Of a stretch of 59,542 nt of DNA, positions 25,677-45,844 are shown one piece after another. A program made the position numbers and the translations under genes. The notes beneath the pieces were generated by a model. That model saw nothing but the letters and a program-made list of their open reading frames with translations, did not search any database and was not told where the DNA came from. The first letter of the stretch is position 1; each line of letters opens with the position of its first letter. Source of the stretch: an uncultured Methanosarcinales archaeon (GTDB lineage Archaea; Nanobdellota; Nanobdellia; Woesearchaeales; GW2011-AR15); assembly GCA_964552005.1 (NCBI GenBank), contig CAZKFC010000004.1, forward strand, positions 1 to 59,542, read 5' to 3'.

Positions 25677-26053
25677 TTTTTATTAGTGTTATAAAAGTGT
25701 ATACTAGTATATAAATATTTTGTATATTGATGTTTTTTTCAACAGTTATTTACTTTTTATATCCATGTGTAGTCACAGCCGTGATTGACCTCTGGTTACA
25801 GTTAATCATAAAAAGTTAACAGATTAAAAAAGCTATTGGCCACACCCCAATCCTTTAAGAAAGCATTGATGGAAACAAAGCGTACTATCTTTTAAGAGAT
25901 AGTACTTATTAAAAAAGCTATGGGGCCCGCCCAGATTCCCACATAAGGGCTGCCACCCTTATCAACCCGCACACTACTCAACTTTGTTGAGTAGGACTTG
26001 TTTTCATCAATGTTTTAGTGAGTGTTAATGAACGGTTAAAATATTGAGAATGA

Positions 26054-26141
26054 TGGGCCCGCCCAGATTCGAACTGGGGATCCCCCGCGTTCTAAACAAA
26101 ATGTTAGTCAGGCGGATGTCATGCCTCTAGACCACGAGCCC
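26054..26141 (-). tRNA. tRNA-Val(GAC) with 16-nt anticodon-loop intron (26090..26105)
   Basis: Acceptor GGGCTCG/CGGGCCC, T-arm CCCAG-TTCGAAT-CTGGG, anticodon stem TCCGC/GCGGG; BHB helix CTGA/TTAG. Confidence 0.9.
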
Positions 26142-26266
26142 CCATATCTAAGAATTAAATAATAGAATAAAAAGATTTCTATTGGCACTGGACAATAATA
26201 GCAGTAGACATTCCCATGTGAGATATATAAACTAATTCTACAATTAAATATCATGAGGTGAGTTAA

Positions 26267-26347
26267 ATGATACATAAAAACCACTATTACATTGAACAAT
26301 TATTCTTTCAACAGATTAAATCTAAAACATTGGAGGTGTCAGCATGA
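26267..26347 (+). CDS. possible 26-aa peptide
   Basis: GAGGTGA RBS; TGA overlaps the next ATG (ATGA). Confidence 0.3.
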   Translation: MIHKNHYYIEQLFFQQIKSKTLEVSA

Positions 26348-26490
26348 AAAAACCTAAAAACATATTAGAAGAAATTGAGCAGGAGCTTAACCAGGACATT
26401 TATAATGAAGTCATGATAGAAAATTATATAGAAGAGGATATTATTAATCCTGGAGAAGCTGGTTTTATGATTGGCTACCTAAGTGCATAA
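26344..26490 (+). CDS. 48-aa acidic small protein
   Basis: GGAGGTG RBS; MKKPKNILEEIEQELNQDIYNEVMIENYIEEDIINPGEAGFMIGYLSA; missing from the ORF track. Confidence 0.7.
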   Translation: MKKPKNILEEIEQELNQDIYNEVMIENYIEEDIINPGEAGFMIGYLSA

Positions 26491-26523
26491 AATATATAAG
26501 TTGTCATATCATCCTTTCTCTAT

Positions 26524-27096
26524 ATGAGGATACTTAATAAAAATGAAATTATGCTTGAGAAAGATTCTTTGTTAAGAGAATTAAGACTAGGTAAAATCTT
26601 TATATACCCTACTGATACAATTTACGGAATAGGCTGTAATGCGTTAAATGAAGACTCCATAAAAAAAATCAGGCAGTTAAAGGAGAGGTATCACCAACCT
26701 TTTTCAGTGATAGCACCATCTAAAGAATGGATAAAAGATAATTGTTATATATCAAAAAAACAATTACAATGGTTAAATAAACTGCCTGGAGCCTATACTT
26801 TTATATTAAAGCTAAAGAATAAATTGGCAGTTTCAAATTATGTCAATTCCGGTATGGAAACTATTGGTGTAAGAATTCCCAAACACTGGTTCACAGAATT
26901 TGTTCAAGAGACAGCTGTGCCCATAATAACAACTTCTGTCAACAAAACGGGCGAACAGTACATGACTTCATTGGAAGACCTTGATCCAGATATCAAAAAA
27001 GGCGTTGACTATATTTTTTTTGATAAGCCAATAATAGGCAAACCTTCCACAATAGTGGATTTTACTAAGAAAAGGATAGAGGTTAAGAAAAGATGA
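26524..27096 (+). CDS. sua5: threonylcarbamoyl-AMP synthase (Sua5/YrdC domain)
   Basis: YPTDTIYGIGC, KER, PGAYTFIL, GVRIP, TTSVN, PSTIVD. Confidence 0.92.
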   Translation: MRILNKNEIMLEKDSLLRELRLGKIFIYPTDTIYGIGCNALNEDSIKKIRQLKERYHQPFSVIAPSKEWIKDNCYISKKQLQWLNKLPGAYTFILKLKNKLAVSNYVNSGMETIGVRIPKHWFTEFVQETAVPIITTSVNKTGEQYMTSLEDLDPDIKKGVDYIFFDKPIIGKPSTIVDFTKKRIEVKKR

Positions 27097-27151
27097 AGAA
27101 TAATTCATTATTAGTCATATCCTTCACTTTGAAGAAGAGAGGTTTTACAAA

Positions 27152-27757
27152 ATGAAGATACTTGCAGCAGGGGACATTCATGGGGACATGGGCCTAGCTG
27201 AAAAACTGGCTGACAAAGCTGAAAAACAAAAAGTTGACCTGGTTATATTGTGCGGTGATTTGACATTCCATGAGCAAAGCACAGATAATATGATAGGGCC
27301 TTTTGTCAAGAAAAAGAAGAAAGTCCTTATCATTCCAGGAAATCATGAGTCTGTGGCAACAGCAGATTTCTTGGCAGAGTTTTACGGCGTCAAAAACATA
27401 CATGGCTATTCTGTGAAATATGAAGATGTGGGGATATTTGGCGCAGGTGGTGCTAATATAGGGCCAAAAACAATAGTAACAGATAAAGAAATCTTTGATT
27501 TGTTGAAACAAGGTCATGACAAAATTAAATATTTGAAAAAAAAGATATTAGTTAGTCATGTTCATCCAACTGGAACCAAAATGGAAAAACTATCAGATTT
27601 TGTTCCAGGCAGCTCAGGCGTGAAAAAAGCCATTGACAAGTTTAAACCTGATATAATGTTGTGCAGTCATGTCCATGAAGCAGAAGGCCTTGAAGAAAAG
27701 ATTGGGAAAACAAGAGTTATTAATGTTGGTCGAAAAGGGAAGATTATTGACATATGA
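27152..27757 (+). CDS. calcineurin-like metallophosphoesterase
   Basis: GDIHG, GD, PGNHE, SH, HVHE motifs. Confidence 0.9.
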   Translation: MKILAAGDIHGDMGLAEKLADKAEKQKVDLVILCGDLTFHEQSTDNMIGPFVKKKKKVLIIPGNHESVATADFLAEFYGVKNIHGYSVKYEDVGIFGAGGANIGPKTIVTDKEIFDLLKQGHDKIKYLKKKILVSHVHPTGTKMEKLSDFVPGSSGVKKAIDKFKPDIMLCSHVHEAEGLEEKIGKTRVINVGRKGKIIDI

Positions 27758-28920
27758 CTTCCAAAATTTATGAGCCAAGAGAAGATTCTTATTTGTTGCA
27801 GAAGTACGTTGAAAAATATTCTGATGTTGATGATTTAGTTTTAGATATTGGAACTGGTTCTGGAATTCAAGCAATAACCGCTGCAAAGAAAGCTAAGAAA
27901 GTAATTGCATCTGATTTAAATCCAAAGGCAATTGAACAGGCAAAGTTAACAGCTAGCATTGAAAAAATAAAGAACATTGAATTTATTGAATCAGATTTAT
28001 TTGATAACATACCTAAAAAAAAGTTTGACCTGATAATATTTAACCCACCTTATCTGCCCAAACTAAAAAAAGTTGAAGATATTGCTTTGTTTTCTGGGAA
28101 GAGAGGTAGCGAGACAACAATAAGATTTTTAGATCAGGCTGCTGATTATCTTAAAAAAGATGGCCTTATATTATTAATAAGTTCTTCAATAACTAATCAA
28201 AATAAAATTCAAGAAAGTGTTCAAAACAATTTACTTGCATCTAAGATTTTGGAAACACAACATGTTTTTTTTGAAGATATTGTTTTATTTTTAATTAAGA
28301 AAAGTGAGATATTAAAAAAATTACATGGTAAAGATGTAACAAATGCCAAAATATTTTCGCATGGAAAAAGAGGCGTTATAATAAAAGCCCAGTATAAGAA
28401 CAAAACAGTAGCTGTTAAAATTAAAAAGTCTGAGAGCACTGCTCAAGGAACAATAGAAAACGAAAGTAAGTTTCTCAAGATTCTGAACAAGGAAAAAATC
28501 GGGCCTAAATTAGTAATGCATGATAAGGATTATTTAATGTATTATTTTGTTCCTGGTAAATTTATTGAAGAATATATTAAAGAACACACTAAAAAAGACA
28601 TTTTAATCGTGTTAAAAAAAATCTTTGAGCAATTGTATAAAATGGACAACCTTGGTATAAATAAGTTTGAGATGCATCATCCTGTTAAGCATATTGTTGT
28701 TAACAAGAATAACCCTGTACTGCTGGATTTCGAGCGCGCACGCTATACAGAAAAGCCTAAAAATATCACACAGTTCTGTGATTATTTAATTGGCATCAGA
28801 GAATTATTAAGAAGCAGAGACATTGTAATTGATAGAAATAATATGATTGATCTTGCCAAAACATATAAGGATAAACCAAGTAAAATAAATTATCAAAAAA
28901 TATTGAGATTGTTAAAATGA
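27754..28920 (+). CDS. HemK2/N6AMT1-like SAM methyltransferase fused to a protein-kinase-like domain
   Basis: YEPREDSYLL, DIGTGSG, NPPY; then HGKRG, VAVK, LLDFER. Confidence 0.85.
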   Translation: MTSKIYEPREDSYLLQKYVEKYSDVDDLVLDIGTGSGIQAITAAKKAKKVIASDLNPKAIEQAKLTASIEKIKNIEFIESDLFDNIPKKKFDLIIFNPPYLPKLKKVEDIALFSGKRGSETTIRFLDQAADYLKKDGLILLISSSITNQNKIQESVQNNLLASKILETQHVFFEDIVLFLIKKSEILKKLHGKDVTNAKIFSHGKRGVIIKAQYKNKTVAVKIKKSESTAQGTIENESKFLKILNKEKIGPKLVMHDKDYLMYYFVPGKFIEEYIKEHTKKDILIVLKKIFEQLYKMDNLGINKFEMHHPVKHIVVNKNNPVLLDFERARYTEKPKNITQFCDYLIGIRELLRSRDIVIDRNNMIDLAKTYKDKPSKINYQKILRLLK

Positions 28921-29234
28921 AATCATTTTCAGAGAGATGTTATTCTTTATTAAAAAAAGTTCCTGAAGGTAAAATCACAACATACAAAGAACTGGCACAT
29001 GCATTGAACACGAAAGCGTTTCAAGCAGTTGGTCAAGCCATGAAAAATAATCCTTATGCACCTCATGTACCTTGCCATAGAGTTGTTTCTTCCGATGGCA
29101 GTATTGGCGGGTTCAATGGCCAAATAAAAGGTAAAAAGATACAAGATAAAATTTCATTATTACAAAAAGAAGGTATAGAATTTAAAGGGAATAAAATAAA
29201 GAATTTTGAAGAAGTTTTGTTTAGCTTTCCTTAG
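28917..29234 (+). CDS. ogt: methylated-DNA-protein cysteine methyltransferase (MGMT family)
   Basis: VPEGKITTY, AVGQAM, PCHRV active-site motif. Confidence 0.88.
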   Translation: MKSFSERCYSLLKKVPEGKITTYKELAHALNTKAFQAVGQAMKNNPYAPHVPCHRVVSSDGSIGGFNGQIKGKKIQDKISLLQKEGIEFKGNKIKNFEEVLFSFP

Positions 29235-30156
29235 ACCTCTTCTTTAGCTTTTTAATCTCATCTTCCAGATCTAATTTCTCAAGTAATTCTTTGTATCTAT
29301 TTCTTATTGTAACTTCAGTAACACCAGCCACATCAGCTACCTCTCTCTGTGTTCTTTTCTCTCCGTTTATTAAAGCTGCAACATACAAACCAGCAGCAGC
29401 AATACCTGTTGGTCCTCTACCAGAAGTTAATTCTGCGTGTTGGGCTTTTTCTATAATCTCAACAGCCTTACTTTGTGTCTTTGGGCTTAATTTTAACGAG
29501 CTTGAAAATCTTGGTATATAATCAATTGGATTACTTGGTAATATAGTAATTTGGAGTTCTCTTGTTACAAATCTGTAAGTCCTGCCAACCTCTTTTTTTT
29601 CTATGCCGGACGCTTCAGATAACTCGTCTAATGTTCTGGGAACTTCATGTCTTCTACAAGCAGCATATAACGCGCCAGCAACAACAGATTCCATGCTTCT
29701 ACCCCTAACAAGTCCTCTTTGCACCGCTAAAGTATAGATGCGGGCAGCTTCTTCTTCAACTGACTTTGGCAATTTAAGATATGAAGATACTCTTTTTAAT
29801 TCTGCCAATGCAAGTTTCAAATTTCTTTCAATAGCAGTTGATATCCTATACTGCCATTTTCTCAACCTGAAAAATTTATTCTTGCTTTTTTTCCCTAATG
29901 CGTATAAATCTGATTTACGGCCGACTTCTGTCCCTAAACCTTGATCATACTGTGTGTATGTTGTTGGCGCGCCTGTTCTTCTTTTTCTTTGAGAAGTGTC
30001 AGAATCAAACTCACGCCATTCCTGGCCGAAGTCAACCATTTTTTCCTCGACAACCAAGCCACAATCCTTACAAATGACTTCGCCCTTTTCCTTGTTAAAG
30101 AATAAGTTTATGCCGCCGCATTCAGGACACTTTTTTACATAATCTCTATCCATCAT
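29221..30156 (-). CDS. tfb: transcription initiation factor IIB
   Basis: CPECGG zinc ribbon, EWREF B-finger, cyclin repeats, TQREVADVAGVTEVTIRNRYKEL. Confidence 0.97.
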   Translation of the reverse strand: MMDRDYVKKCPECGGINLFFNKEKGEVICKDCGLVVEEKMVDFGQEWREFDSDTSQRKRRTGAPTTYTQYDQGLGTEVGRKSDLYALGKKSKNKFFRLRKWQYRISTAIERNLKLALAELKRVSSYLKLPKSVEEEAARIYTLAVQRGLVRGRSMESVVAGALYAACRRHEVPRTLDELSEASGIEKKEVGRTYRFVTRELQITILPSNPIDYIPRFSSSLKLSPKTQSKAVEIIEKAQHAELTSGRGPTGIAAAGLYVAALINGEKRTQREVADVAGVTEVTIRNRYKELLEKLDLEDEIKKLKKRSKES

Positions 30157-30337
30157 ATATCAAACCCCCGCATCACTCTTAAGTAAAACGTTAATTTTAT
30201 AAAGGGCAATTGAATTGCTTTAAAAAGATTTCGGTTTCTTGGCTTTGGCTATATAATATATATTTGGCTATAAACTATTTTTATAAGCAAGTATTAGAAA
30301 GAAACTTTTATATATTTCAATGTAAATAATTTTCAAC

Positions 30338-30964
30338 ATGAATAAATTTGTGTATCTGGTTTCTATTGCATTATTAATGATTATAGTAACTGGCTGTTCA
30401 ACCTTGTTTAATGGTGAGGAAGAACAAGAACTTGTCTTACCTACTGCAGTAGAGCAATGGGCAGTATCCGCCAAGGCAAGTTCAGCTGCCGGTGGTTTAT
30501 TGGGAGAGAACAGGGATGACCAGAGTCCGTATGCAGCAACTGGTGAGCCGGACGTTGAAGAATGTGGCAACAGTTTAAATGCGTGGGTTATTGAACAAGA
30601 AGACGACGGTTTACATTGGCTTGAACTAGAATTTTATGATGAAGTTTATGTAAGTAAAGTTAGAATAAGAGAAAGCTGGAACCCTGGTTCTGTTACAAAA
30701 GTAGAGCTAAAAGATGGAGATAATTATGTAACAATGTGGGAAGGTACAGATAATAGAAGACACCCAGAGTGTCCGGGTTTTTTTGAAGTTGAGTATGAAG
30801 GGCAAGAAGGCAATATTACAGTAAAAATGTCACCATTTAAAGTACATACAATAAGGATAACATTTAACACAGACGTTCCTGGTTGGAACGAGATAGACGC
30901 TGTCCAATTAGTTGGTTATAACGATAGATGGTATTTATTTAATAATACTATTTTCTATGAGTAA
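30338..30964 (+). CDS. putative lipoprotein with discoidin/galactose-binding-like fold
   Basis: Signal with IVTGC; ASS...ATGEPDV...NAW, WLELEF, WNEIDAVQLVG. Confidence 0.7.
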   Translation: MNKFVYLVSIALLMIIVTGCSTLFNGEEEQELVLPTAVEQWAVSAKASSAAGGLLGENRDDQSPYAATGEPDVEECGNSLNAWVIEQEDDGLHWLELEFYDEVYVSKVRIRESWNPGSVTKVELKDGDNYVTMWEGTDNRRHPECPGFFEVEYEGQEGNITVKMSPFKVHTIRITFNTDVPGWNEIDAVQLVGYNDRWYLFNNTIFYE

Positions 30965-31124
30965 ATATTCTTTTAGATTTTAATTTTTTCTTTGTCGCCA
31001 AATAAGGCTATAATTTCTTTGTGGCGACGAACCTATGATTTAAAAGAAACAATCTTGGCTGTATTGATTAAGCAGTGAGGGCAATCCGAGGTAGAAATTT
31101 TTAAAAAACAGAATTTTAAACTAA

Positions 31125-31676
31125 TTATCTGCCAACAAACAAGTTATATTTCTCATTACCTTTTAGCTCAGAAAGAATTCTTTTTACAACTATCTTCTTC
31201 GGGTCAGGCAATAATTTTACACGTTTTTTTAAATCGTCAAAACTTTTAAATTCTTCAATACGTCGCTCTTCAATAATTTCCCACATATGTTTCTTTCCAA
31301 GGCCGGGCAGCAATTCTAAGATATGCATTCTAGTTGTTAAAGGCTGCGCTTTGTTAAAAAAATCAACAAACTTCTTCTCATTTTTCGTTACATAATCACT
31401 CACCAGCTGTTCTAGTTCTGCTAGCGCTGTTGCTGTTAATTTGTTAGGGTCTAATTTTCCGTTGACATGATGAATCTTATCGCGCTTGCCTTCGCCAATG
31501 TAAACTTCATCATGAATTTGTAATGTTGCCTCTTTTTTAGGCACAATCTCTAATAAAGTAAGATAGTCTTTTCCTAGAGCTTGCACTATTGCAGTCTTTT
31601 TATATCCGGGCGTGTTGTCGAATGCATAGCCGTGTGGTAATATATCAAGGACTATTGCGAATTCTTCTTTTTGCAT
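31125..31676 (-). CDS. DUF655 family RNA-binding protein
   Basis: IVLDILPHG, LELLPGLGKKHMW HhH; conserved position after rpl21e-rpoF. Confidence 0.88.
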   Translation of the reverse strand: MQKEEFAIVLDILPHGYAFDNTPGYKKTAIVQALGKDYLTLLEIVPKKEATLQIHDEVYIGEGKRDKIHHVNGKLDPNKLTATALAELEQLVSDYVTKNEKKFVDFFNKAQPLTTRMHILELLPGLGKKHMWEIIEERRIEEFKSFDDLKKRVKLLPDPKKIVVKRILSELKGNEKYNLFVGR

Positions 31677-31729
31677 TTTTATGAGAGGTAGTTAATGGAG
31701 GCTTGTATTTAAATTTTATGTGTAGAAAT

Positions 31730-32083
31730 TTATTTTTTTTCAGGAAGATACTTCTTTATTACACTAATAATTTTTTGCTGGTTGTCTTTGTTAACTGTTA
31801 GAGTGTACCCTGAAAATATCACTTTTAATTCTTCAACACTTGCCGGCAACAGGTCCAACAATTTTTTTATGTGATGTTCTTTTAACCTTGGTATATTCAG
31901 TTTAATTATATCCTTTTCTAAAGACTCTGCTTGACTTTGTTTTAATACAGTGTATTGGTTAATGTATTCTTCAGTTTTTCCTGTCCTGATAGATAATTCT
32001 TTTTTCCTTTTTTTGATTTTTGTAATCTCTTTCTTCAAATCATATATACTTATTGGAGTTTGTTCTTGGATTTTCGGGTTCAT
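31730..32083 (-). CDS. rpoF: RNA polymerase subunit F (Rpo4)
   Basis: KLLDLLPASVEELKVIF; synteny rpl21e-rpoF-DUF655. Confidence 0.85.
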   Translation of the reverse strand: MNPKIQEQTPISIYDLKKEITKIKKRKKELSIRTGKTEEYINQYTVLKQSQAESLEKDIIKLNIPRLKEHHIKKLLDLLPASVEELKVIFSGYTLTVNKDNQQKIISVIKKYLPEKK

Positions 32084-32370
32084 TTTGATCTTTTAAGATG
32101 TACAGGATGTACTATAAGTAATTTTTCTTTTTTTCCGTCTTTTATAAGAACTTCGTAACAATGGCCTTTCTTGTTTAGGATTAAACCAGACTTACCGTGA
32201 AACCTTGGATAATACATGCCTTTTTGGTAAGCAGATTCAGCTTTTAATATTACTTTATCTCCTTGTTTAAATTCCTGAAAAAATTTTCTTATAGAGATTT
32301 TGCCTCTTTCCTTGTAATTCTTTTTTAATTTACTGCGGGTTTTTCTTCTAAAACTACCATGATGTTTCAT
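32080..32370 (-). CDS. rpl21e: 50S ribosomal protein L21e
   Basis: GSFRRKTRSKL, GMYYPRFHGKSG, VHPVHL. Confidence 0.95.
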   Translation of the reverse strand: MKHHGSFRRKTRSKLKKNYKERGKISIRKFFQEFKQGDKVILKAESAYQKGMYYPRFHGKSGLILNKKGHCYEVLIKDGKKEKLLIVHPVHLKRSK

Positions 32371-32461
32371 GTCAACAATGGAAAAAAGTATTGTTTATAA
32401 AGATTACGCAATAATAAAGTTTATTAATTAAAAAAATATAGTTTAAAAAGGGTGATGTGAT

Positions 32462-32680
32462 ATGACTGATTTGTTTAGAGCTGCTGTAAATGATATACAA
32501 AAAACATATGTGTACAAAAATGTGCAAGATCCTGCCACAAAAGAAACATTAAAACATCTTATTAACGCGTTGAGCCACTTACTCTATTTTGTTGGTACAG
32601 AAAATAAAGACCTTATAAACTTAAAAAAAGAAATGAGCACGCTCAAATCCATACTTGCTGAGCACGGCTATAGATATTAA
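32462..32680 (+). CDS. hypothetical protein
   Basis: GGTGA RBS; fills the gap between convergent and divergent genes. Confidence 0.65.
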   Translation: MTDLFRAAVNDIQKTYVYKNVQDPATKETLKHLINALSHLLYFVGTENKDLINLKKEMSTLKSILAEHGYRY

Positions 32681-38270: not shown

Positions 38271-39485
38271 ATGAACTTCTCATGTCCTTATTGCGGCGGA
38301 TCTAGATTACAACATTTACGAACATGCCCGAAAGTGTATTCTATCATTAAACAAAAGCAGTTTAACAAAAAATCTAAAAAAGACTATTTTGGCGAGTCTC
38401 CAAATATTTTTATTGGCAGGTTTGGTTATCCAAAGGTTAACGTGGGCATTTTGTCTAATGAGCTTCTGCCTAAAGATGTTGATAACCCTAAAAAATGGGT
38501 AGAAGATAATTACGAGATACCAAAGATTGTTGATTTACGTAGCACATTAATCAATTCCAGGTTCAAAGCAAACGTGAAAAGTTTTGATGAAAAATTTCTT
38601 GAAATAACTAAAGAAGTTTCCATGGCAAAAAAGCCAGTAGATGTTGAAGTCCACCTTAACAAAAAGCCACAGTTTAGCATTAATCTAGATAATGATATTA
38701 CGCCTTACGGCCCTTCTGTTAAATTAGAGAAAGCTGAGATAACCGAAAACCCTTCTATCTCGAGACAGGTTGATAAAGTTGTTAGTGAAGATGAGCTGAA
38801 AGCAACAGAAGCTATAGACTATTTATATAATAAAGGTTATGACGAGCATTTCCTGACAAAACTTATTTCAGTGGGCAATCTTGGCATAAAGAAGGAAAGG
38901 AAATTAGTGCCTACAAGATGGTCTATCACAGCAGTTGACGACATTCTCGGAAAAAAACTTATTGCTGAAATAAAAGATTACAATAATTATGACTATGTGG
39001 CACACTTCGGCGGTTATCTGGGCAATTATTATCTTATATTATTCTTCCCGGAAATATGGTCTTATGAATTATTTGAGACATATGTTGGCAATCCGGAAGA
39101 ACTTAAACTAAATGAAATAGAAACTGCAACTGATTATGAACCATACACTGGAAGGAAAAGTTATGCGATTAATACAGTAGGCGGTTACTACGCTGCCCGT
39201 TTGGGAATTTTAGAATATTTGAAAAATAAAAAAAGACAAGCTTCTGTATTAGCCTTGAGATTTATAACAAACGAGTATTATATGGCGCTTGGTGTTTGGG
39301 TTGTAAGGGAAGCAACTAGAAACGCATTGAAATCAAAACCAATTATTTTTTCTAGTGAAGATTTAATGATGAAATACGCTTCCATGTTAATCAAAAAGAA
39401 ATTTACTTTTGAATTAGATAATCTAACTAAAAAAAGTGTAATATTAAAAGAAATAAAAAATCAAAAAAAGCTTACTCAGTTTTAG
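38271..39485 (+). CDS. nreA: Nre family archaeal DNA repair protein
   Basis: CPYCGGSRL...CP zinc motif, SPNIFIGRFGYP, LVPTRWSITAVDD, GGYYAARL, LGVWVVRE, C-terminal PIP-like QKKLTQF; start moved to ATG 38271. Confidence 0.9.
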   Translation: MNFSCPYCGGSRLQHLRTCPKVYSIIKQKQFNKKSKKDYFGESPNIFIGRFGYPKVNVGILSNELLPKDVDNPKKWVEDNYEIPKIVDLRSTLINSRFKANVKSFDEKFLEITKEVSMAKKPVDVEVHLNKKPQFSINLDNDITPYGPSVKLEKAEITENPSISRQVDKVVSEDELKATEAIDYLYNKGYDEHFLTKLISVGNLGIKKERKLVPTRWSITAVDDILGKKLIAEIKDYNNYDYVAHFGGYLGNYYLILFFPEIWSYELFETYVGNPEELKLNEIETATDYEPYTGRKSYAINTVGGYYAARLGILEYLKNKKRQASVLALRFITNEYYMALGVWVVREATRNALKSKPIIFSSEDLMMKYASMLIKKKFTFELDNLTKKSVILKEIKNQKKLTQF

Positions 39486-40044
39486 CTTCAGCTTTTTCTT
39501 TTTTTAGTTTTTCTTTAGCTTCTTTAGCAGGTTTCTCTTCCTTTTCTTCCTCTTTAGGAGCTTCTTTTTTTTCTTCCTCTGCTTCGTCTTTCCTTTTTTT
39601 AGGTTTTTCTTCTTCTTTTGGTTTTTCAGCTGGTTTTTCTTCAGCAGGCGCTTCTTCTGCTGGAGCTTCAACAACTAAAGGCTTTTTACCATGTTTGAGT
39701 ATTTTCATACTAATTTGCGTTATTTTATCATGTATTGTGTTGCCGCAAACAGTTTTTCTTTTACGAATGCCTTTTTCCTTATTTCTAATACCTACTCCAC
39801 TAACCAATAAAACTTTTTTTCTAACAGGTCCTTCTATATCACGTCTCATTGGGAAACCGCAATAATCTGCGCCACCAGTTATCTCGAATTCGTATCCTGG
39901 TAGATCAAGAGCTTCTCCTCTTATTTTATCACCTATTTTTTTGTTGATAAGTTTGTCCGCGTTATCACCTGAAACTACTATCTGGGTAGATTTTCCTGTC
40001 TTCGGATCTCCAATAACTAATTTGAATTCCGCCATTATTATCAC
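39472..40044 (-). CDS. rps6e: 30S ribosomal protein S6e with Glu/Lys-rich C-terminal tail
   Basis: FKLVIGDPKTG, EITGGADYCGFPMRRD, RKTVCGN. Confidence 0.93.
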   Translation of the reverse strand: MIIMAEFKLVIGDPKTGKSTQIVVSGDNADKLINKKIGDKIRGEALDLPGYEFEITGGADYCGFPMRRDIEGPVRKKVLLVSGVGIRNKEKGIRKRKTVCGNTIHDKITQISMKILKHGKKPLVVEAPAEEAPAEEKPAEKPKEEEKPKKRKDEAEEEKKEAPKEEEKEEKPAKEAKEKLKKEKAEAKTE

Positions 40045-40253
40045 CTTAATTTTATATAGCTGAGAACTTGATTTAAGTCTCGTAATGAGATCAACCCAAG
40101 GTTTTAAGCCTCAGCACTTACAAAGAATTAATAATGACTTTAAAAAGATTTTGTTATCCATAACTTTTATAAAGCATGTATTTTTCCTCTGCAGTAAGAA
40201 ATGTGGGACTTTCCTTTATAAAGGGAGCCTGAATCTTGCCAAGGTGAAATGTA

Positions 40254-40832
40254 ATGGGAGTTTACAAATATATAAAGCAGTTGTGGAAAAACCCTAAAAA
40301 AAACAATCCTGAATTGTGGAAAAAAAGATTAATACAATGGAGACGTGAACCAGTTACAATAAGAATAGACAAGCCAACTAGGTTAGATAAAGCACGTGAG
40401 CTTGGATATAAAGCTATTAAAGGTTTTGTCATTGTAAGGCAGCGTGTGAATAAAGGTGGCCGTATGCGGCCTAAGATAAGGAAAGCACGTAGACCAAAGA
40501 CAAGGCGCCATAAAAAAATTGTTGCTCAAAATTATCAGACAATTGCAGAGCAACGAGCTAATAAAAAATATCCAAACTGTGAAGTTCTCAATAGTTACTG
40601 GGTTGCAGAAGACGGCTTATATAAATGGTATGAAGTCTTGCTAGTAGATAAAGAACATCCTGAAATTAAATCAAGACATAGTTTAAGCTGGATATCTCAG
40701 CCGCAACATCGTGGCCGTGTATACAGAGGTAAAACTTCTTCAGGAAGAAAATCTAGAGGATTAAGAAAAAAAGGCAAGGGCGCTGAAAAAGTCCGACCTT
40801 CACTAAGAGCAAAAGGCAGAAAAGCCCATTAA
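40254..40832 (+). CDS. rpl15e: 50S ribosomal protein L15e
   Basis: PTRLDKARELGYKA, EVLNSYWVAEDG, RGKTSSGRKSRGL. Confidence 0.96.
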   Translation: MGVYKYIKQLWKNPKKNNPELWKKRLIQWRREPVTIRIDKPTRLDKARELGYKAIKGFVIVRQRVNKGGRMRPKIRKARRPKTRRHKKIVAQNYQTIAEQRANKKYPNCEVLNSYWVAEDGLYKWYEVLLVDKEHPEIKSRHSLSWISQPQHRGRVYRGKTSSGRKSRGLRKKGKGAEKVRPSLRAKGRKAH

Positions 40833-40866
40833 ATTTTTATAATCTATTTTATTTTTATTGTGATAC

Positions 40867-41090
40867 GGGCTCGTAGTCTAGCGGCTACGCGTTGAAATTC
40901 CGGTGGAATTCACTGGTTAGCGGCGCGCCGCAAATGACGTCGCCCTTACATCCTTAGGGAAAGAAAGGCGGAGGTCCCCAGTTCGAATCGTGACAAGCTT
41001 TTTAAAAAAGCTTGAGCAAAATAGGTGCAACATTCAACTTTGTTGAAGTTCCACTTTTGCAATTATACGGCGAAAGTCTGGGCGGGCCCA
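40867..41090 (+). tRNA. tRNA-Val(TAC) with three introns (40887..40933 D-loop, 40951..40965 at 37/38, 40988..41076 T-loop)
   Basis: Removing the three segments gives a complete cloverleaf GGGCTCG...CT-TAC-AA...TTCGAAT...CGGGCCC-A; BHB helices GCGG/CCGC, CTTA/AAAG (one mismatch), TTCG/CGAA. Confidence 0.88.
40994..41056 (+). repeat. double-hairpin repeat copy inside the tRNA-Val(TAC) T-loop intron
   Basis: Core AGGTGC-n-ACATTCAACT-n-GTTGAAGT-n-CCACTT (30 identical positions) shared with 45781..45815 on the minus strand. Confidence 0.8.
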
Positions 41091-41152: not shown

Positions 41153-41410
41153 GTGCTTACAAAAATTTTTTGGAGTGGGTGTTTAAAAATTAACAATATT
41201 ATATTAGCAGGTTTTGTTGTTATATTTCTAATCTTTATTTTATTAATCTATTTAAGAATAAGAGAAAGTCCAGGAAATAATTTAAGACGAGCACGGAAAC
41301 ATCATAAATTAGGTGAAAAATACTATAATGAGGGCGATGTTGAAGAAGCTGAGTTACATTATGAGATTGCTAAACAATACAGAGAAAAAGCTTTGAAGGG
41401 TGGAAAATAA
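41153..41410 (+). CDS. small membrane protein with TPR-like helix pair
   Basis: One TM helix, then HHKLGEKYYNEGDVEEAELHYEIA. Confidence 0.65.
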   Translation: MLTKIFWSGCLKINNIILAGFVVIFLIFILLIYLRIRESPGNNLRRARKHHKLGEKYYNEGDVEEAELHYEIAKQYREKALKGGK

Positions 41411-42129
41411 TGGAGTGGTACGAGAAATTTGACTTTGACGAAGATCCTTTTTCTACAAATCCTAGGGAAAATCATGATAAACTAGTTGGTATGGAAGAAA
41501 TAATTGAAGAAATCTTTTACAGGATCAATTCTGGCAGCATGTTGGTTGTTGAGGGTCCTGAAGGAAGTGGAAAAACTACATTGTTGATGGTAGCAGCCAG
41601 GAAATTCGGCGGCAAAAAAAAGGTTGTCTATATTGACTGTAGTGTCCTTAATAAGAAGCTAAATATAACAAGAGTTTTGCAGAACAGGTATGGTTTTTTC
41701 GGCAGGTTATTTAACAAGAAACCTAAAAACATGATTCTTCTAATGGACAATGTCCATGAATTATCTAAACTAAACACAGAACGTCTTAAATATTATTTTG
41801 ACCAGAATTATATTAAGTCAATTATATTTACAACTGAGAAATACAGCAAGGTAAAATTTTCTGATAGCTTAAAAGACAGGATTGGCAAACGTGTCATTAA
41901 AATACCAAAGTTGAGCGAATATGACGCAGTTGAGATTATCAGGAAAAGAATAAATGATGACAATAATGAATTATTCAATGAGAACATCATTAAAAAAATT
42001 TTTAAGATATCCAAATATTCACCAAAAGATTTGTTAAAAAATTGTGCAAGAGTCGCCCAGGTGGCAGCTAATAAAGAGCGTAATAGAGTCCAGATGATTG
42101 ATTTAAAAGTCTTTGGGAAGAAAAAATGA
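41410..42129 (+). CDS. AAA+ family ATPase (ExeA-like N-terminus)
   Basis: WYEKFDFDEDPF, Walker A GPEGSGKT, Walker B LLMDN. Confidence 0.8.
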   Translation: MEWYEKFDFDEDPFSTNPRENHDKLVGMEEIIEEIFYRINSGSMLVVEGPEGSGKTTLLMVAARKFGGKKKVVYIDCSVLNKKLNITRVLQNRYGFFGRLFNKKPKNMILLMDNVHELSKLNTERLKYYFDQNYIKSIIFTTEKYSKVKFSDSLKDRIGKRVIKIPKLSEYDAVEIIRKRINDDNNELFNENIIKKIFKISKYSPKDLLKNCARVAQVAANKERNRVQMIDLKVFGKKK

Positions 42130-43139
42130 CGTTATGGTATAAAAAACTTGGTTTTTATAGCAATCCATTTAGTATAAAGCCTGCAGCTTTTCATGATAAA
42201 TTAGTTGCATATGACATGTCTTACATTTATAAGAAAATTAATGATGGAGAAATTTTGTTCATAGAAGGCGAGTATGGTACTGGCAAAACTACCATATTGA
42301 AAAATATTATTAGAAGGTTTAGAGGGAAAAACAGAATAATATATTATAGCTTTAACACAGGCGATTTTAACCTTAAATCCTTATTAGAAGGTGCTAATTC
42401 GTTCTTGCGTAAGATGGCTGGCTTGCGCGTTAAGAATATTGTCATGCTGTTAGATGAGGTCCAGAGCTTAAAAACTCAAGAAGCAAGACAACTACTGAAT
42501 TATTATCGGGATGGTACTATCCAGAGCATTGTCTTTGTCAGCCATGATTATGATAATGTGAAGTTTCCTGTTGAGATTGAGACTTTCCTTAACGGGAATA
42601 TCCTTAGGACAGTTGATTTGAGTTTGAACGAGGCGCTTGACTTAGTGAAATCTAGGATTGGTGATCTTGACATATTGCCAAAAAACATGGCTGCAAAATT
42701 GTTTAAATTAGCAGGGAAAAATCCAAGAAGATTTTTTGAATATTGTGAAGACACTATTAAATACGCAGTTGAGATTGGTGATGATCAAGTAACTGATTTC
42801 CATGTTAATGAGGCTCTTAAAGATGTTGTAAAAGAACAGAAAAAAAAGAAAGTTATCAGGAAATTAGCTAAAGCTGCTAAAAAGACAGTTGCTAAAAAAG
42901 CACCAGTAAAAAAGCCGGCTGTAAAGAAAGTAACTAAGAACGCTAAAGCTAAACCAAAACCTAAGCAAACTGTTGAGAAAACAAAACCCGCTTCCAAAAA
43001 ATACAAAGTAAACAAGTTAATTGAGAATACTAAAAAATCTGGTTTAGGAACTATTACAGCAAAAGAAGAACCTATATCAGAAGAAACAGAATCAGATGAG
43101 GATGTCCCTGAATATAAAGTTTATTTCTTTGATAAATGA
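42126..43139 (+). CDS. AAA+ family ATPase with Lys-rich low-complexity tail
   Basis: WYKKLGFYSNPF, GEYGTGKT, MLLDE. Confidence 0.8.
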   Translation: MTLWYKKLGFYSNPFSIKPAAFHDKLVAYDMSYIYKKINDGEILFIEGEYGTGKTTILKNIIRRFRGKNRIIYYSFNTGDFNLKSLLEGANSFLRKMAGLRVKNIVMLLDEVQSLKTQEARQLLNYYRDGTIQSIVFVSHDYDNVKFPVEIETFLNGNILRTVDLSLNEALDLVKSRIGDLDILPKNMAAKLFKLAGKNPRRFFEYCEDTIKYAVEIGDDQVTDFHVNEALKDVVKEQKKKKVIRKLAKAAKKTVAKKAPVKKPAVKKVTKNAKAKPKPKQTVEKTKPASKKYKVNKLIENTKKSGLGTITAKEEPISEETESDEDVPEYKVYFFDK

Positions 43140-43263
43140 TTAATATTATCTTTACAAAATCCTCTTAGAGGCATTTGAACCTACATCTTATTTTATAAAA
43201 TTAAGTCGGGCTAAGCAAAGCGCATCTCGACTTTTTTCGCTTAAACCTTTCTTAAAGGATTAA

Positions 43264-43335
43264 TGGACTCGGCGGGGATCGCACCCGCTGCCTTTCCCGT
43301 GCGAGGGGAACGCTCTACTGGTGAGCTACGAGCCC
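43264..43335 (-). tRNA. tRNA-Ala(CGC)
   Basis: Acceptor GGGCTCG/CGAGTCC with G3:U70; anticodon arm TTCCC-CTCGCAC-GGGAA. Confidence 0.88.
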
Positions 43336-43338
43336 GTT

Positions 43339-43412
43339 TGGGGTCCCTGGGATTCGAACCCAGATCTCAGAGTCCCGAACCCTGAATCTTAACCAAGTTG
43401 GACCAAGACCCC
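43339..43412 (-). tRNA. tRNA-Pro(CGG)
   Basis: Acceptor GGGGTCT/GGACCCC; anticodon arm CAGGG-TTCGGGA-CTCTG; T-arm CTGGG-TTCGAAT-CCCAG. Confidence 0.9.
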
Positions 43413-43546
43413 TTTATTCGGACTACTTAATATAATTAATGTAGTCCTTGGTTTTTTCCATCAATGCTTTTGTAAAAGGCTTGACCAAGTTGGACCAAGA
43501 CCCCTTAACTAATAAGTGAGAAAATAATAGAAATAAAAACTTTACC

Positions 43547-44206
43547 TTAATCAAGTTCTATATATATATTGTATGTGGCCTGGCCTAAACTTACATTAAC
43601 AGGTACTAATAATTGGAAGTCAGTTGCAGTCCCGTTAAAGCCTATAACATCATTATCAATGAGGGCAGTGTAAACAGTTGTGACTGCATCTGTGTTCAAC
43701 AAAACATTCCAAAAGACGACTTTAGGATCTGTGCTGTTATCAGTTAGTGTGGACCTGCAGCCTGTCATAAGCCTGCCGGCAACATCAAAGCTCGGATGTG
43801 TTGTATTAAGAAAAGTGTCATTTATCCCATCGCTGGTTGAGTTTGAGATGTTGAGCCGAGCTTCTTCCTGGTATATTTGTGTTTGGTTAGTGCAATTTAT
43901 GTTTGACCAGTCACTGATTACAGTGCGTGTGGCAAAAACTTCTCCACTTGGAGTAACAGCATTCCAGTCATACAAGTTACTGCCGGTTGCATCTTCAAGA
44001 ACTATGCCGCCGCCAACCTCTCCAAAAAACCCTTGCCATATCTTTGTTTCTGATGTGCCATTTATTTCTAATGGTGTTACGTTGCCACCGCCTGCAGTTA
44101 AATTTGATACATTAAGAGAAGGATCTGATAAAACATATTTAGTTTGTGAAATCATAATTATTATAGATAATATGCTCAATATGAAAATAAGTTGTTTTTT
44201 ATTCAT
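43547..44206 (-). CDS. secreted beta-rich protein, family copy 3
   Basis: Signal peptide; WQGFFGEVGG, SDWSNINC, DGINDTF, HPSF, DFQLLVP, TYNIYIEL. Confidence 0.85.
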   Translation of the reverse strand: MNKKQLIFILSILSIIIMISQTKYVLSDPSLNVSNLTAGGGNVTPLEINGTSETKIWQGFFGEVGGGIVLEDATGSNLYDWNAVTPSGEVFATRTVISDWSNINCTNQTQIYQEEARLNISNSTSDGINDTFLNTTHPSFDVAGRLMTGCRSTLTDNSTDPKVVFWNVLLNTDAVTTVYTALIDNDVIGFNGTATDFQLLVPVNVSLGQATYNIYIELD

Positions 44207-44207: not shown

Positions 44208-44771
44208 CTAGTTACCTACTTTACTTAAAAACTGATTATAGAGATTTTGTTTAGGCTTTATTTTGAAATCATTAATGATTTGAAATACTCTATAAGGAGT
44301 TATTCCGGTTTGTTTAGCAATATTTTCTAGCAAGACGCCGTTCTGATACGCATGGATGATATGGTAATAACGAAACATTTGTGGGTTAATTTTTCTAGAA
44401 CTGATTTTCTTTGTATAATCTTGTATTAACTGTCTAACACGTTTTTCAGATATCTGCTTAGATTGCCTTGTTGACAATATATAATAACCTTTAGACAGGT
44501 TATTACCCCTTATATAGAAAGATAGGTCTTTGGCCAGTTTCCCAGAAATCCTTGAAAACCTTAGTTCTCTTGTCTCAGGATCAAAAATTTTAATTTTATT
44601 ACCTAATATATCAGAAACTTTGATATTAACTAATTCTATTAAGGTACAACCTGTTTCATAGAGAAGTCTAATCATTAACTTGTCTCTCATATCTGAGATA
44701 GAAGATATTAATTTTCTAATTTCTTGCAGTGAAAGATAGCTCTCGCTACTCTCTTTTGTTTTCTGGCTCAT
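44208..44771 (-). CDS. tyrosine recombinase (Xer/integrase) catalytic-domain homolog lacking catalytic residues
   Basis: RDKLMIRLLYETGCTLIEL, NPQMFRYY, IAKQTGIT; no N-terminal core-binding domain. Confidence 0.8.
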   Translation of the reverse strand: MSQKTKESSESYLSLQEIRKLISSISDMRDKLMIRLLYETGCTLIELVNIKVSDILGNKIKIFDPETRELRFSRISGKLAKDLSFYIRGNNLSKGYYILSTRQSKQISEKRVRQLIQDYTKKISSRKINPQMFRYYHIIHAYQNGVLLENIAKQTGITPYRVFQIINDFKIKPKQNLYNQFLSKVGN

Positions 44772-44796
44772 TTGTACCTGGTTAAATTGGGTTTAG

Positions 44797-44824
44797 TTTC
44801 CGTTTCTATATTATAAAACGGAAA
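44797..44824. promoter_or_regulatory. 28-bp imperfect palindrome upstream of the recombinase-like gene
   Basis: TTTCCGTTT-CTATATTATA-AAACGGAAA, 26-53 bp from the ATG. Confidence 0.45.
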
Positions 44825-44935
44825 AAAGGTTTTAATTGATATATATTTTATTACTTAATTTCTATTTAATTATATATAAAAAGAAACTAATATATAAATG
44901 TTTCTATTCTTTAGCCTAGTATACTTATTAGTATA

Positions 44936-45445
44936 TTAAATGAAGAAACTTAGTATACTGCCTAATATAAAATAAATTATTGTATGAATTAAGTTAAAAG
45001 CTGCTGCTTGTGGATCAAAACCTATTATAATATTAAAAAGTGTTCTAAGTAAGTTAAAAAAGATAATTCCATATATGATTGCTGATGTTGACGTTAAAAT
45101 AAATCCAAAAAGTACTAATGTAATCATAATTGAAATAAAATTGATTATACTATGGTGGTTGAATCTACCTGATAATAAATCTATAATTGGCTGTGCTATA
45201 ATAATAAAGTAGATTGCAGACATTGGGTCGTATAAATAAGTTAAGAGTAAAGCAGAGAATGGTACAGGATCGACATCTAAGGCAATAGCAGTGCCAAACT
45301 TTATCATAAATATTAGGCAGAATAAAAATAATCCAACTTCCACAATGATGTTCTTTGTTAAAGTAAGCAGCATTAATACAAGAATAATCATTAATATTTG
45401 TAGTTTAAAAGGCACCTTGGTAAAGAAATTTTTTGTTTTGGCCAT
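44936..45445 (-). CDS. multi-pass membrane protein
   Basis: About five hydrophobic helices. Confidence 0.7.
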   Translation of the reverse strand: MAKTKNFFTKVPFKLQILMIILVLMLLTLTKNIIVEVGLFLFCLIFMIKFGTAIALDVDPVPFSALLLTYLYDPMSAIYFIIIAQPIIDLLSGRFNHHSIINFISIMITLVLFGFILTSTSAIIYGIIFFNLLRTLFNIIIGFDPQAAAFNLIHTIIYFILGSILSFFI

Positions 45446-45488
45446 ATAATATTAGAATGTGTGTGGATTATATAAAGTTAAAGTAATA

Positions 45489-45722
45489 CTATCTGTTTTT
45501 ATTGGGCAATGCATCAAATTCTTTTTTCTTGCTTTCTATCCATTTCTGCATAGCTTTTGGATTTTGCATTAATTCGCGCATCTCATTCATGACTTTTATA
45601 TGAGCTTCATCACCTTTTTGAGCCATTTCCATACCATGTTTTTTGCTTAACTCTGCCATCTCCTCAAAAGTTTCAGCATGAAATTCTTTATCACAAGCTC
45701 CTCTTAACTGCTTACATGTCAT
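45489..45722 (-). CDS. DUF1059-like small metal-binding protein
   Basis: MTCKQLRGACDKEFHAETFEEM...H; start moved to ATG 45722. Confidence 0.75.
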   Translation of the reverse strand: MTCKQLRGACDKEFHAETFEEMAELSKKHGMEMAQKGDEAHIKVMNEMRELMQNPKAMQKWIESKKKEFDALPNKNR

Positions 45723-45780
45723 TGTTTTTATAATATCACTATTGTGTAAGAGCTTAGAACTGATTATAAATCTTATCTTT

Positions 45781-45844
45781 AAGTGGGACTTCAACTTCAG
45801 TTGAATGTCGCACCTCTTTTCCATGCATGCTTTTAGTAAAAGGA
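45781..45844 (-). repeat. double-hairpin repeat copy directly 3' of tRNA-Leu
   Basis: TCCTTTTACTAAAAGCATGCATGGAAAAGAGGTGCGACATTCAACTGAAGTTGAAGTCCCACTT. Confidence 0.8.

Follow-up and report, generated by a model that had tools for sequence, protein, structure and literature searches.

Two-hairpin modules at the tRNA genes of a woesearchaeal contig: a family of short, intron-like elements in introns, leaders and trailers

Introduction

Why do six short and similar sequences on a single archaeal contig all lie at tRNA genes, and how might they have come to be there? The question is raised by a 59,542-nt stretch of DNA (contig CAZKFC010000004.1 of assembly GCA_964552005.1; hereafter, the window), in which a first-pass annotation made from the letters alone had described six copies (here c1 to c6) of a repeat with two hairpins separated by a linker and an A-tract. 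By analogy with repetitive extragenic palindromic (REP) sequences and IS200/IS605-derived palindromes, which are moved by HUH transposases, the repeat was taken to be a non-autonomous element or a structured RNA signal directed to tRNA loci. The analysis reported here confirms the family and its tie to tRNA loci through hidden Markov model (HMM), covariance-model and 12-mer comparisons, and places its copies in three kinds of position: in tRNA introns (in the T-loop of tRNA-Val(UAC) and in the anticodon loops of other tRNAs), in 3' trailers and in a 5' leader. It seems to us somewhat probable that the six copies belong to a family of short (~60-70 nt), modular and duplicative tRNA-intron-like elements that spread among tRNA genes at the DNA level. 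The earlier idea of a non-autonomous element thus stays the best reading, with the addition that the element is duplicative; the analogy with HUH-mobilised repeats is not supported, since no HUH domain was found in the window ORFs scanned, no conserved target tetranucleotide precedes the copies, and duplications of 13-26 nt flank many of them.

Results

Six copies with two hairpins each

Six tRNA genes were found in the window, and every copy lies in, or at most 130 nt from, one of five of them. The c1 copy (25848-25905, + strand; hairpin 1 at 25848-25868, linker ATGGAAACAAAGC, hairpin 2 at 25882-25905) is antisense both to tRNA-Val(GAC) (26054-26141, - strand) and to ScpA, and its orthologues precede ScpA in the relatives L005/L139 and L138. 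The same tRNA-Val(GAC), a gene called by ARAGORN that has a 16-nt canonical intron when read against the intron-less gene of L106, is followed after 7 nt by c2 (25974-26046, -), which is sense to it; hairpin 1 of c2 (CAATATTTT and AAAACATTG, 26046-26008) is split by a 21-nt loop overlooked in the first-pass annotation, and is followed by the linker and by hairpin 2 at 25994-25974. The c3 copy (40994-41054, +; hairpin 1 at 40994-41014, linker AGCAAAATAG, hairpin 2 at 41024-41054) lies within tRNA-Val(UAC) (40867-41090, +), whose exons match the intron-less orthologues of L006 and L007 and which has three introns, in the D-loop, at the canonical position 37/38 and in the T-loop. Directly 3' of tRNA-Ala(CGC) (43264-43335, -; no intron) begins the degenerate c4 (43204-43263, -; hairpin 1 at 43263-43241, an A-tract, and an imperfect hairpin 2 at 43232-43204); its A-tract (T-run at 43230) is 2 nt shorter in three of four sequencing runs, the remaining run agreeing with the window, and this is the sole indel polymorphism seen in any copy. 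The c5 copy (43420-43483, -; hairpin 1 at 43483-43462, linker ATGGAAAAAACC, hairpin 2 at 43447-43420) lies 5' of tRNA-Pro(CGG) (43339-43412, -; no intron), with a TATA-like TTATATTA in the loop of its hairpin 2, ~24 nt upstream of the gene. Finally, c6 (45783-45846, -; hairpin 1 at 45846-45826, linker CATGGAAAAGAG, hairpin 2 at 45814-45783) follows tRNA-Leu(UAA) (45845-45957, -; 27-nt canonical intron), the last two bases of which form part of its hairpin 1 stem. The sixth gene, tRNA-Gly(GCC) (48323-48447, -; canonical intron), is without a copy.

The first-pass annotation was thus right as to the presence and position of all six copies, to which whole-window HMM and covariance-model scans add no seventh, and as to the tRNA assignments and orientations, five copies being sense to the adjacent tRNA and c1 antisense. 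The exact links that it listed were reproduced as well, namely AAAGCATTGATGGAAA (25860-25875 (+) and 43455-43470 (-)), AATCCTTTAAGAAAG (25849-25863 and 43247-43261 (-)) and TCAACTTTGTTGA (25978-25990 and 41034-41046), together with the 30 identical positions, out of 34, between 41023-41056 and 45781-45815 (-). The family is a network of similarities (c1-c5, c1-c4, c3-c6 and c2-c3) and not a set of six equally similar copies. Of the described layout, the two hairpins and the linker stand; hairpin 1 is longer than had been thought, and takes in the TTG of what had been given as a TTGATGG linker.

A stem of 9 bp (CAAKCC-UUU/AAA-GCMUUG), in which a C.C mismatch is conserved, makes up hairpin 1, and the linker behind it is A-rich, reading A(U/G)GGAAACAAA; the motif of hairpin 1 plus linker is nearly identical in organisms from hydrothermal vents and from groundwater. 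In 15 copies from several genomes pair 4 is G-C in seven, U-A in five and A-U in one, pair 6 is C-G in 11 and U-A in three, and the C.C mismatch at position 5 is present in 12 of the 15. Paired bases occupy 94.8% of the alignment cells, double changes occur at four pairs, and the covariation score, calculated in a register set by hand, is 0.326 as compared with 0.105 ± 0.032 for shuffled alignments, none of 500 of which reaches it. Hairpin 2 varies in sequence between subfamilies and always keeps its fold, with compensatory changes among c3, c6 and the copy of L014 (GTG/CAC to GAG/CTC, and AAC/GTT to GAC/GTC) and also between two copies in L030. The two strands fold equally well, and in a comparison of G.U with A.C pairs the antisense folds are as stable as the sense ones or more so. 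Compared with shuffled sequences, c1, c5, c3 and c6 fold better (z of -3.8 to -2.2), and c2 and c4 not clearly so. A search of Rfam gave no match with an expectation value (E) of 1 or less except for tRNAs and one weak tRNA-like match inside tRNA-Ala. Two other identities were tried and set aside: a guide RNA of the C/D or H/ACA class, for which UGAUGG would resemble a C box, has no pairing D box and no Rfam match, and a solitary sequence resembling a CRISPR (clustered regularly interspaced short palindromic repeats) repeat, with a 29-nt unit ending in GGAAAC, has no array.

When the family HMM was used with nhmmer, six places only were found in the window. The leave-one-out E values are 0.011 for c1, 7e-4 for c5, 0.2 for c6, 0.46 for c3, 0.55 for c2 and a weak 3.4 for c4, and each of c1, c5, c6, c3 and c2, when omitted, was the top place outside the training copies. 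A covariance model of hairpin 1 and linker was trained with c2 and c4 left out (hairpin 2, which cannot be aligned across subfamilies, was kept out) and run with filters off; it recovers the untrained c4 (27.7 bits, E of 1.2e-4) and c2 (20.2 bits, E of 0.009), the next matches in the window, with E of at least 0.33, being reverse-strand echoes of training copies and unrelated weak ones. The loci (tRNA flanks and intron) have 11 12-mers in common, as against 1.1 ± 1.3, with a maximum of 7, in 300 dinucleotide shuffles. Chance could be invoked for a likeness among AT-rich hairpins behind tRNA genes, as single 13-16-mers recur in DNA of 33% G+C (the value for the window) and the leave-one-out values of c4, c2 and c3 are weak; it is rejected as hardly credible because of the excess of shared 12-mers, the covariation, the recovery of untrained copies by the model, and the occurrence of the same module, with covariation, at tRNA genes of other genomes.

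The restriction to tRNA genes is likewise not that of generic terminators spread evenly through intergenic DNA. In the window 857 of 5137 intergenic nucleotides lie within 130 nt of a tRNA gene, and all copies are found there or in the intron, with none in the other ~4.3 kb of intergenic DNA. The covariance model also finds further tRNA-adjoining members in relatives: in ~1.09 Mb of their loci, which were picked through L15e and hence independently of the element, three of seven non-training matches abut tRNA genes (in L030, L040 and L018).

The T-loop intron of tRNA-Val(UAC)

The first-pass annotation had placed c3 correctly in an intron of tRNA-Val(UAC), and had missed that c3 is the body of that intron, an 89-nt T-loop intron (40988-41076, +; UCGUGAC...GGCGAAAG) bounded by a motif of the bulge-helix-bulge (BHB) type. 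In the minimum-free-energy (MFE) fold of the precursor the T-stem CCCAG/CUGGG is followed by a 3-nt bulge (AGU), a 4-bp central helix (UUCG/CGAA), a 2-3-nt bulge (AA(U)) and an inner helix (UCGUG/UACGG), and the helices of the cloverleaf are restored. This BHB is near-canonical, and cutting within its bulges gives back the T-loop UUCGAAU; without 40988-41076 the gene reads ...CCCAG-UUCGAAU-CUGGG-CGGGCCC-A, as do the intron-less orthologues of L006, L007 and L138. Because a BHB motif flanks this exon-internal copy, the intron is predicted to be excised from the pre-tRNA by the archaeal splicing endonuclease.

Comparison of the tRNA-Val(UAC) genes that lie downstream of L15e in relatives shows that their T-loops differ. 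The T-loop is intact in L138, L006 and L007 (85%, 74% and 70% identity of L15e, respectively); in L005/L139 (80%) it holds an unrelated two-hairpin intron at the same site; and in L014 (61%), a distant Woesearchaeote, it holds at the same site a homologous intron with the hairpin 1, linker and hairpin 2 architecture of c3. Because of these differences the T-loop of tRNA-Val(UAC) is, judging from the gene sequences, a site of repeated intron turnover. In L030 (10740-11500) each of three consecutive minus-strand tRNA genes has a T-loop intron, and L030 also has two larger relatives of the element (~115 nt) with a long-range helix, ATTGATGG/CCATCAAT versus GTTGACGG/CC(T)GTCAAC, that shows compensatory changes.

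These observations are relevant to annotation. ARAGORN and the Rfam gathering search miss or misread those tRNA genes of the window, L005 and L030 that have T-loop introns, and in tRNA-Val(GAC) ARAGORN misreads the anticodon as 'aac' (Ser in intron mode); the tRNAs of the lineage may thus be undercounted by standard annotation.

Duplicated tRNA ends around the copies

A feature overlooked in the first-pass annotation is that c1, c2 and c5 are flanked by duplications of tRNA ends. The c1 copy lies between two exactly matching copies of a 13-nt direct repeat, TTAAAAAAGCTAT (25824-25836 and 25909-25921), which is the tRNA-Val trailer read on the + strand; in a local alignment of the c1 flanks 16 of 17 positions agree. 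Abutting the left end of c1 is a decayed orphan piece of the tRNA-Val acceptor/T-arm, GGCCACACCCCA (25838-25849, +), which has positional orthologues beside the c1 orthologues of L005 (TGGGCCTGCTCACACC) and L138 (GGCCAGACTCGAACTGGC). The c2 copy has on either side a copy of the last 17-18 nt of tRNA-Val, one in the gene (26054-26071) and the other an orphan 3' end, GGGAATCTGGGCGGGCCCCA (25921-25940, -), which extends from the T-loop to the discriminator base and has one extra C. Next to this orphan end is a hairpin module 'B', ATAAGGGCTGCCACCCTTAT (25943-25962), that holds the same position beside an orphan 3' end of tRNA-Pro(GGG) in L035; a tRNA-like reading of 25921-25970, with the loop CTGCCAC as anticodon loop, was abandoned because the L035 counterpart has a different loop. 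The c5 copy is enclosed by the first 25 nt of tRNA-Pro in duplicate, once in the gene (43388-43412) and once as an orphan, GGGGTCTTGGTCCAACTTGGTCAAG (43480-43504, -; 24 of 25 identical), whose last 4 nt are at the same time the start of the c5 hairpin 1 stem, a microhomology at the c5 junction.

Nine loci of the family have direct repeats of 13-26 nt around an element of 59-67 nt, and c2 makes ten; the repeats consist of the tRNA end, sometimes including trailer bases. Orphan 3'-end copies were found at two more loci, in L040 (tRNA-Pro(GGG)) and L018. In all, c1, c2 and c5 and no fewer than ten relatives from other genomes are bracketed by a tRNA end in this manner, and the same is true of most copies that lie outside exons. 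Among 62 tRNAs called by ARAGORN the 3' 14-mer recurs downstream in seven and the 5' 14-mer recurs upstream in three, with no repeat on the wrong side. The orphan copies are decaying relics, since they mismatch the acceptor stem. In L133 the syntenic tRNA-Pro(CGG), which comes after the same recombinase-like gene pair as in the window (described below), has neither a duplicate nor a c5-type insert upstream, and there is a weak antisense match downstream only. No one known transposition chemistry accounts for repeats that vary in length and may include trailer bases, for the microhomology at the c5 junction and for the absence of terminal inverted repeats from the element. Splicing of read-through transcripts, considered as well, is at most a weak idea: in antisense copies of the L104 type a conserved UGAG/UGAA can pair with T-loop positions 54-57, and the MFE fold prefers the normal T-arm; the duplicated tRNA-Pro 5' end plus c5 is to be judged likewise.

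More complex arrangements were also seen. At 13400-13700 of L122 (Ga0066336_11) a tRNA-Pro 5'-like fragment comes first and, after 36 nt, a complete tRNA-Pro(CGG); behind these lie an antisense element, an orphan 3' end, a second tRNA-Pro(CGG) truncated at its 5' end, and tRNA-Ala, as though (so it appears) a resident tRNA-Pro had been split by an insert bringing a replacement gene. A module AACGAAAGTGA precedes orphan tRNA 3' ends in L109 (3380-3450), L122 (9380-9425) and L018 (11089), and L109 has three tandem copies of the tRNA-Arg(UCG) 3' end. Orphan tRNA ends of this kind could be mistaken for split tRNAs.

The two tRNA-Val genes of the window are themselves inverted with respect to each other, and the 14.7-kb segment between them (26141-40867) is inverted relative to L005, L006 and L139, where one reads Nre-S6e-L15e-tRNA-Val(UAC)-ScpA and then the genes found between 24.9 and 19 kb of the window. 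This implies recombination inside the 3' half that the tRNA-Val genes have in common.

Related modules in other introns, tRNAs and genomes

The first-pass list of copies, correct for the window, had missed related copies in introns of other tRNAs. In runs X1-X4 a 34-nt sequence 94% identical to hairpin 1 and linker of c3 occurs in a gene like that of tRNA-Gly(CCC); the letters before it, ...GGTCTAGTGGCAAGACTCCACCCTCC, are those of a D-arm and an anticodon stem-loop, and it therefore lies in an anticodon-loop intron. What comes after it shares homology with the canonical intron of tRNA-Arg(UCG) in L109, a groundwater metagenome-assembled genome (MAG), and that intron opens with a stem like that of hairpin 1. 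Because the tRNA-Gly(CCC)-like intron joins c3-like and L109-intron-like parts, modules evidently recombine. A second module, CGCGTTrAAAT-hairpin-TTCACTGG, is found both in the D-loop intron of tRNA-Val(UAC) (40888-40916, +) and in the canonical intron of tRNA-Gly(GCC) (48379-48410, -), and in L138 (~2087-2126) the canonical intron of tRNA-Val(CAC) begins with the start of this module, CGCGTTAAAAT. Similar introns at different positions of different tRNAs are thus found, both for c3 with the tRNA-Gly(CCC)-like copy and for the second module; confinement to introns is not, as c1, c2, c4, c5 and c6 are leader or trailer copies.

In the same vent metagenomes a c5-like copy lies downstream of, and antisense to, the 3' end of another tRNA. 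Other contigs of these runs, of similar depth, include a 68-nt, 94% identical copy of 25943-26010 (the c2 locus), and two more copies like hairpin 2 of c6 lie in contigs of low depth. A metagenome scan with a hairpin 1 plus linker pattern identified true members also in DPANN genomes other than this one (in Hainich groundwater, and on a 1.16-Mb contig). They are found on the downstream side of, and in antisense orientation to, tRNA-Arg(UCU), Arg(UCG), Arg(CCU), Ile(GAU) and Val(GAC); in every case in which that side is available, an orphan copy of the same tRNA's 3' end follows.

Candidate enzymes and neighbouring genes

No RAYT (REP-associated tyrosine transposase), TnpA, TnpB, HUH, DDE or Cas1 domain was found in 50 open reading frames (ORFs) of the window, comprising all those of at least 100 aa except H+-PPase, CorA, a 120-aa ORF without a Pfam hit and a 4372-aa repeat ORF; the RAYT or TnpA gene that the HUH analogy would call for is thus not among these window ORFs, nor was an active integrase gene found in the window. 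The copies are preceded by no conserved tetra- or pentanucleotide, such as the GTAG-type tetranucleotide beside REP hairpins, and their left flanks differ.

Between c5 and c6 is a tyrosine-recombinase-like ORF (44208-44771, -; 187 aa), the only recombinase-like gene seen; a gene for a secreted, sequon-rich protein of ~220 aa (43547-44206, -) always comes after it. The family (~185 aa) is conserved across Woesearchaeota. None of the eight aligned members has the catalytic Arg I and there is no conserved nucleophile Tyr at the usual spacing, and by these residues the protein is probably not an active recombinase. The gene pair is syntenic next to tRNA-Pro(CGG) even where there is no insert upstream of the tRNA, and is therefore not the marker of a mobile element; no recombinase-like homologue was found near other copies. 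An integrated element made up of this ORF and the ORFans around it, bounded by c5 and c6, was rejected on these grounds, the pair being chromosomal and syntenic, Arg I missing, and homologues absent near the copies and from IMG/VR. A viral origin was rejected also, as three pattern scans of IMG/VR gave chance coding matches or nothing; neither the element nor the recombinase-like protein was found in that collection.

Between tRNA-Val(UAC) and tRNA-Ala are two neighbouring genes for AAA_14/STAND-like ATPases (41410-43139, +), a pair that is kept beside the recombinase-like gene in L131. Proteins coded in the window include archaeal L15e, S6e, L21e, TFB, ScpA and H+-PPase; L15e and the small recombinase-like protein have their best relatives in MAGs that carry the label Woesearchaeota, Nanoarchaeota or Nanoarchaeia, and contigs nearly identical to the window come from hydrothermal-vent metagenomes. 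The organism is accordingly a DPANN archaeon from the woesearchaeal group. The 4372-aa ORF (6152-19270, +) has long internal repeats with a periodicity of 2676 nt (repeat families D1-D12), is followed by an ORF with an immunoglobulin-like (He_PIG) domain (19273-20571), and probably codes for a giant surface protein. A 17-nt tandem repeat, TATAAAGAAAAAAYAAT, in ~4 copies (22408-22481) precedes a gene for an ArsR/MarR-type helix-turn-helix protein (22711-23313), and an ORF at 55702-56436 (-) has an NYN nuclease domain. A 48-nt stretch around the palindrome TATACTAGTATA occurs twice with 75% likeness, in the ScpA promoter region (25681-25728) and in the tRNA-Gly(GCC) trailer (48275-48322), and a similar sequence is found before ScpA in L005.

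Discussion

Taken together, the BHB-bounded intron, the copies in other introns and the duplicated tRNA ends place the family with archaeal tRNA intron dynamics and not with REP-type repeats. In the process that we propose, new copies would be formed at the level of DNA, as an element inserts or recombines into a tRNA gene. Where the tRNA end is duplicated in the event, the gene would stay intact and the element would come to lie in the leader or trailer; where the proximal duplicate is lost, or insertion occurs without a duplicate, the element could become an intron wherever a BHB can form. Modules might in addition recombine with each other. Candidates for the enzyme would be a hairpin-recognising recombinase or transposase encoded elsewhere, or an integrase-type or long-stagger integrase recombination; an alternative route would be illegitimate recombination guided by homology or microhomology, or template switching, using the conserved T-arm. 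A more specific proposal, to which we would subscribe with real doubt, is that the module is an active site-directed mobile element at tRNA ends and loops, moved by a hairpin-reading enzyme or by a Cas1- or tyrosine-type integrase, which duplicates 15-30 bp of the tRNA end and becomes a BHB intron after the proximal duplicate is lost.

Several findings weigh against spreading elements of this kind. No mobilising enzyme was found among the ORFs scanned, and a comparison of filled and empty sites found no variation, the same structure being present in all the near-identical contigs compared and in Logan contigs of four runs. The c1 copy is old, being orthologous in three genomes with its fold kept, a conservation to be expected from selection for a host function no less than from mobility; the T-loop intron, common to the window and the distant L014, may be ancient and repeatedly lost, and not recently inserted. 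There is no flanking duplication at c4 and c6; elsewhere the duplications range from 13 to 26 nt, and terminal inverted repeats are lacking from the element. In read-through precursors of antisense copies the MFE fold gives no preference to a BHB formed with the distal copy of the exon.

Three other explanations must be weighed against these elements. Direct repeats of tRNA ends, reaching from the T-loop to the 3' end or inward from the 5' end and at times taking in trailer bases, are the classic signature of integration into tRNA genes (PMC3293823, PMC9897764), and the loci could be scars left by virus or plasmid integrases, with the tRNA ends as attL and attR and the module as an arm beside attP; the inverted segment between the tRNA-Val genes shows that these tRNA genes recombine, and a tyrosine-recombinase-like gene lies between c5 and c6. 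We consider such scars unlikely as the source of the family, for the repeats enclose only 40-115 bp at every locus, so that independent deletions would each time have had to stop at the same 60-nt module, and the family is found inside introns as well; the recombinase-like gene is chromosomal, lacks Arg I, is syntenic where the element is missing and is absent near other copies, and no trace of element or integrase was seen in IMG/VR. About equally improbable in our estimation is a structured DNA or RNA signal of the host (a terminator or insulator, a carrier of promoters, or a protein site) whose copies are kept alike by selection. It would account for the compensatory changes by which orthologous c1 is maintained in three genomes with L15e identity of only 80-85%, for the near-sameness of hairpin 1 and linker in vent and groundwater organisms, for the terminator-like hairpin followed by UUUGUUUCC that antisense copies present on the tRNA-sense strand, and for the TATA-like box of c5 ~24 nt upstream of tRNA-Pro. 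It leaves unexplained the duplicated and decaying tRNA ends, and it sits poorly with copies that vary in position (leader, trailer or intron) and in orientation (five sense and one antisense here, mostly antisense elsewhere), with tRNA genes that have no copy (tRNA-Gly; tRNA-Val(UAC) of L006 and L007; upstream of tRNA-Pro(CGG) in L133), and with the lack of a match to any Rfam family.

The third explanation is the one from which the first-pass annotation started, namely a sequence like REP or the bacterial interspersed mosaic elements (BIMEs), or a palindrome-associated transposable element (PATE) derived from IS200/IS605, moved as a single-stranded DNA hairpin by an HUH enzyme encoded elsewhere. 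HUH enzymes read features such as a conserved mismatch within a hairpin stem and a conserved single-stranded motif next to it; the copies have both of these together with two hairpins, and occur in both orientations. IS200/IS605-derived palindromes insert 3' of a fixed tetra- or pentanucleotide, and neither they nor REP elements are known to produce long target duplications. Here long target-derived duplications are found at many copies, the restriction to tRNA genes is strict, a conserved tetra- or pentanucleotide in front of the copies is missing, and no Y1 or Y2 HUH or TnpB domain was found in the window ORFs scanned; we therefore hold an HUH-moved palindrome to be quite improbable.

The significance of the family lies in the three states in which the window and its relatives show it, as a spliceable intron, as a leader or trailer insert bracketed by duplicates, and as a decayed relic. 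A 2014 review stated that the mechanism by which archaeal tRNA introns are gained is unknown (PMC4090602), and a series of three such states makes intron gain testable; were the mobile-element reading true, the loci would be intermediates in the gain of archaeal tRNA introns, the mechanism of which has been open since 2010.

Comparison with known systems brings out both what is shared and what is not. With REP/BIME-RAYT systems and PATEs the family shares short, non-coding, multi-copy, non-autonomous hairpins in which structure is conserved over sequence; unlike them it has no HUH gene in the window, no fixed target motif, long duplications, and confinement to tRNA genes and introns. Miniature inverted-repeat transposable elements are similarly small, non-autonomous and multi-copy with direct-repeat flanks, but the present elements have no terminal inverted repeats, and their flanking repeats are long, variable and always tRNA-derived. 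Casposons, and spacer integration at CRISPR arrays by Cas1-family integrases, offer examples of insertion at a tRNA 3' end with a long target duplication that leaves the gene intact, and this is also the outcome at the loci described here; casposons have terminal inverted repeats, cas1, polB and a fixed 14-15-bp duplication, whereas here there are no inverted repeats and no cas1 in the window, and repeats range from 13 to 26 nt. Another comparison is with the attachment-site (att) duplications of archaeal tRNA genes, in which a complete tRNA is accompanied by a direct repeat of part of its 5' or 3' end, changes in tRNA fragments go along with changes in introns, and inversions occur between tRNA genes (PMC3293823; PMC9897764); a model in which introns and tRNA fragments are gained through the integration of mobile elements has been proposed (PMC3293823). 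The family differs from such integrations in that the insert is 40-115 bp and not kilobases long, no functional integrase is found between or beside the repeats, and the same tiny insert recurs at many tRNAs.

Of known phenomena, the one nearest to the family is not REP or IS200; it is the 'transposition' by which BHB introns pass between archaeal tRNA genes, taken with the tRNA-gene recombination model (PMC3293823) of how introns and tRNA fragments arise. In Thermoproteales, for which transposed BHB introns were described by Fujishima et al. (2010; as summarised in PMC4090602), similar introns are found at different positions of different tRNAs by a mechanism that is unknown and thought to act at the DNA level (PMC4090602). 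As there, groups of near-identical short structured sequences occur in the D-loop, anticodon loop and T-loop of different tRNAs, with removal, here predicted, by way of a BHB. Unlike the Thermoproteales introns, the present modules belong to DPANN archaea (Woesearchaeota), occur in leaders and trailers as well and in both orientations, are frequently bracketed by duplicated tRNA ends, and conserve the C.C mismatch of hairpin 1 and the linker. What is new is thus the DPANN lineage, the presence of the same modules in introns and in flanks, and the recurrent brackets of duplicated tRNA ends, which look like an intermediate between insert and intron.

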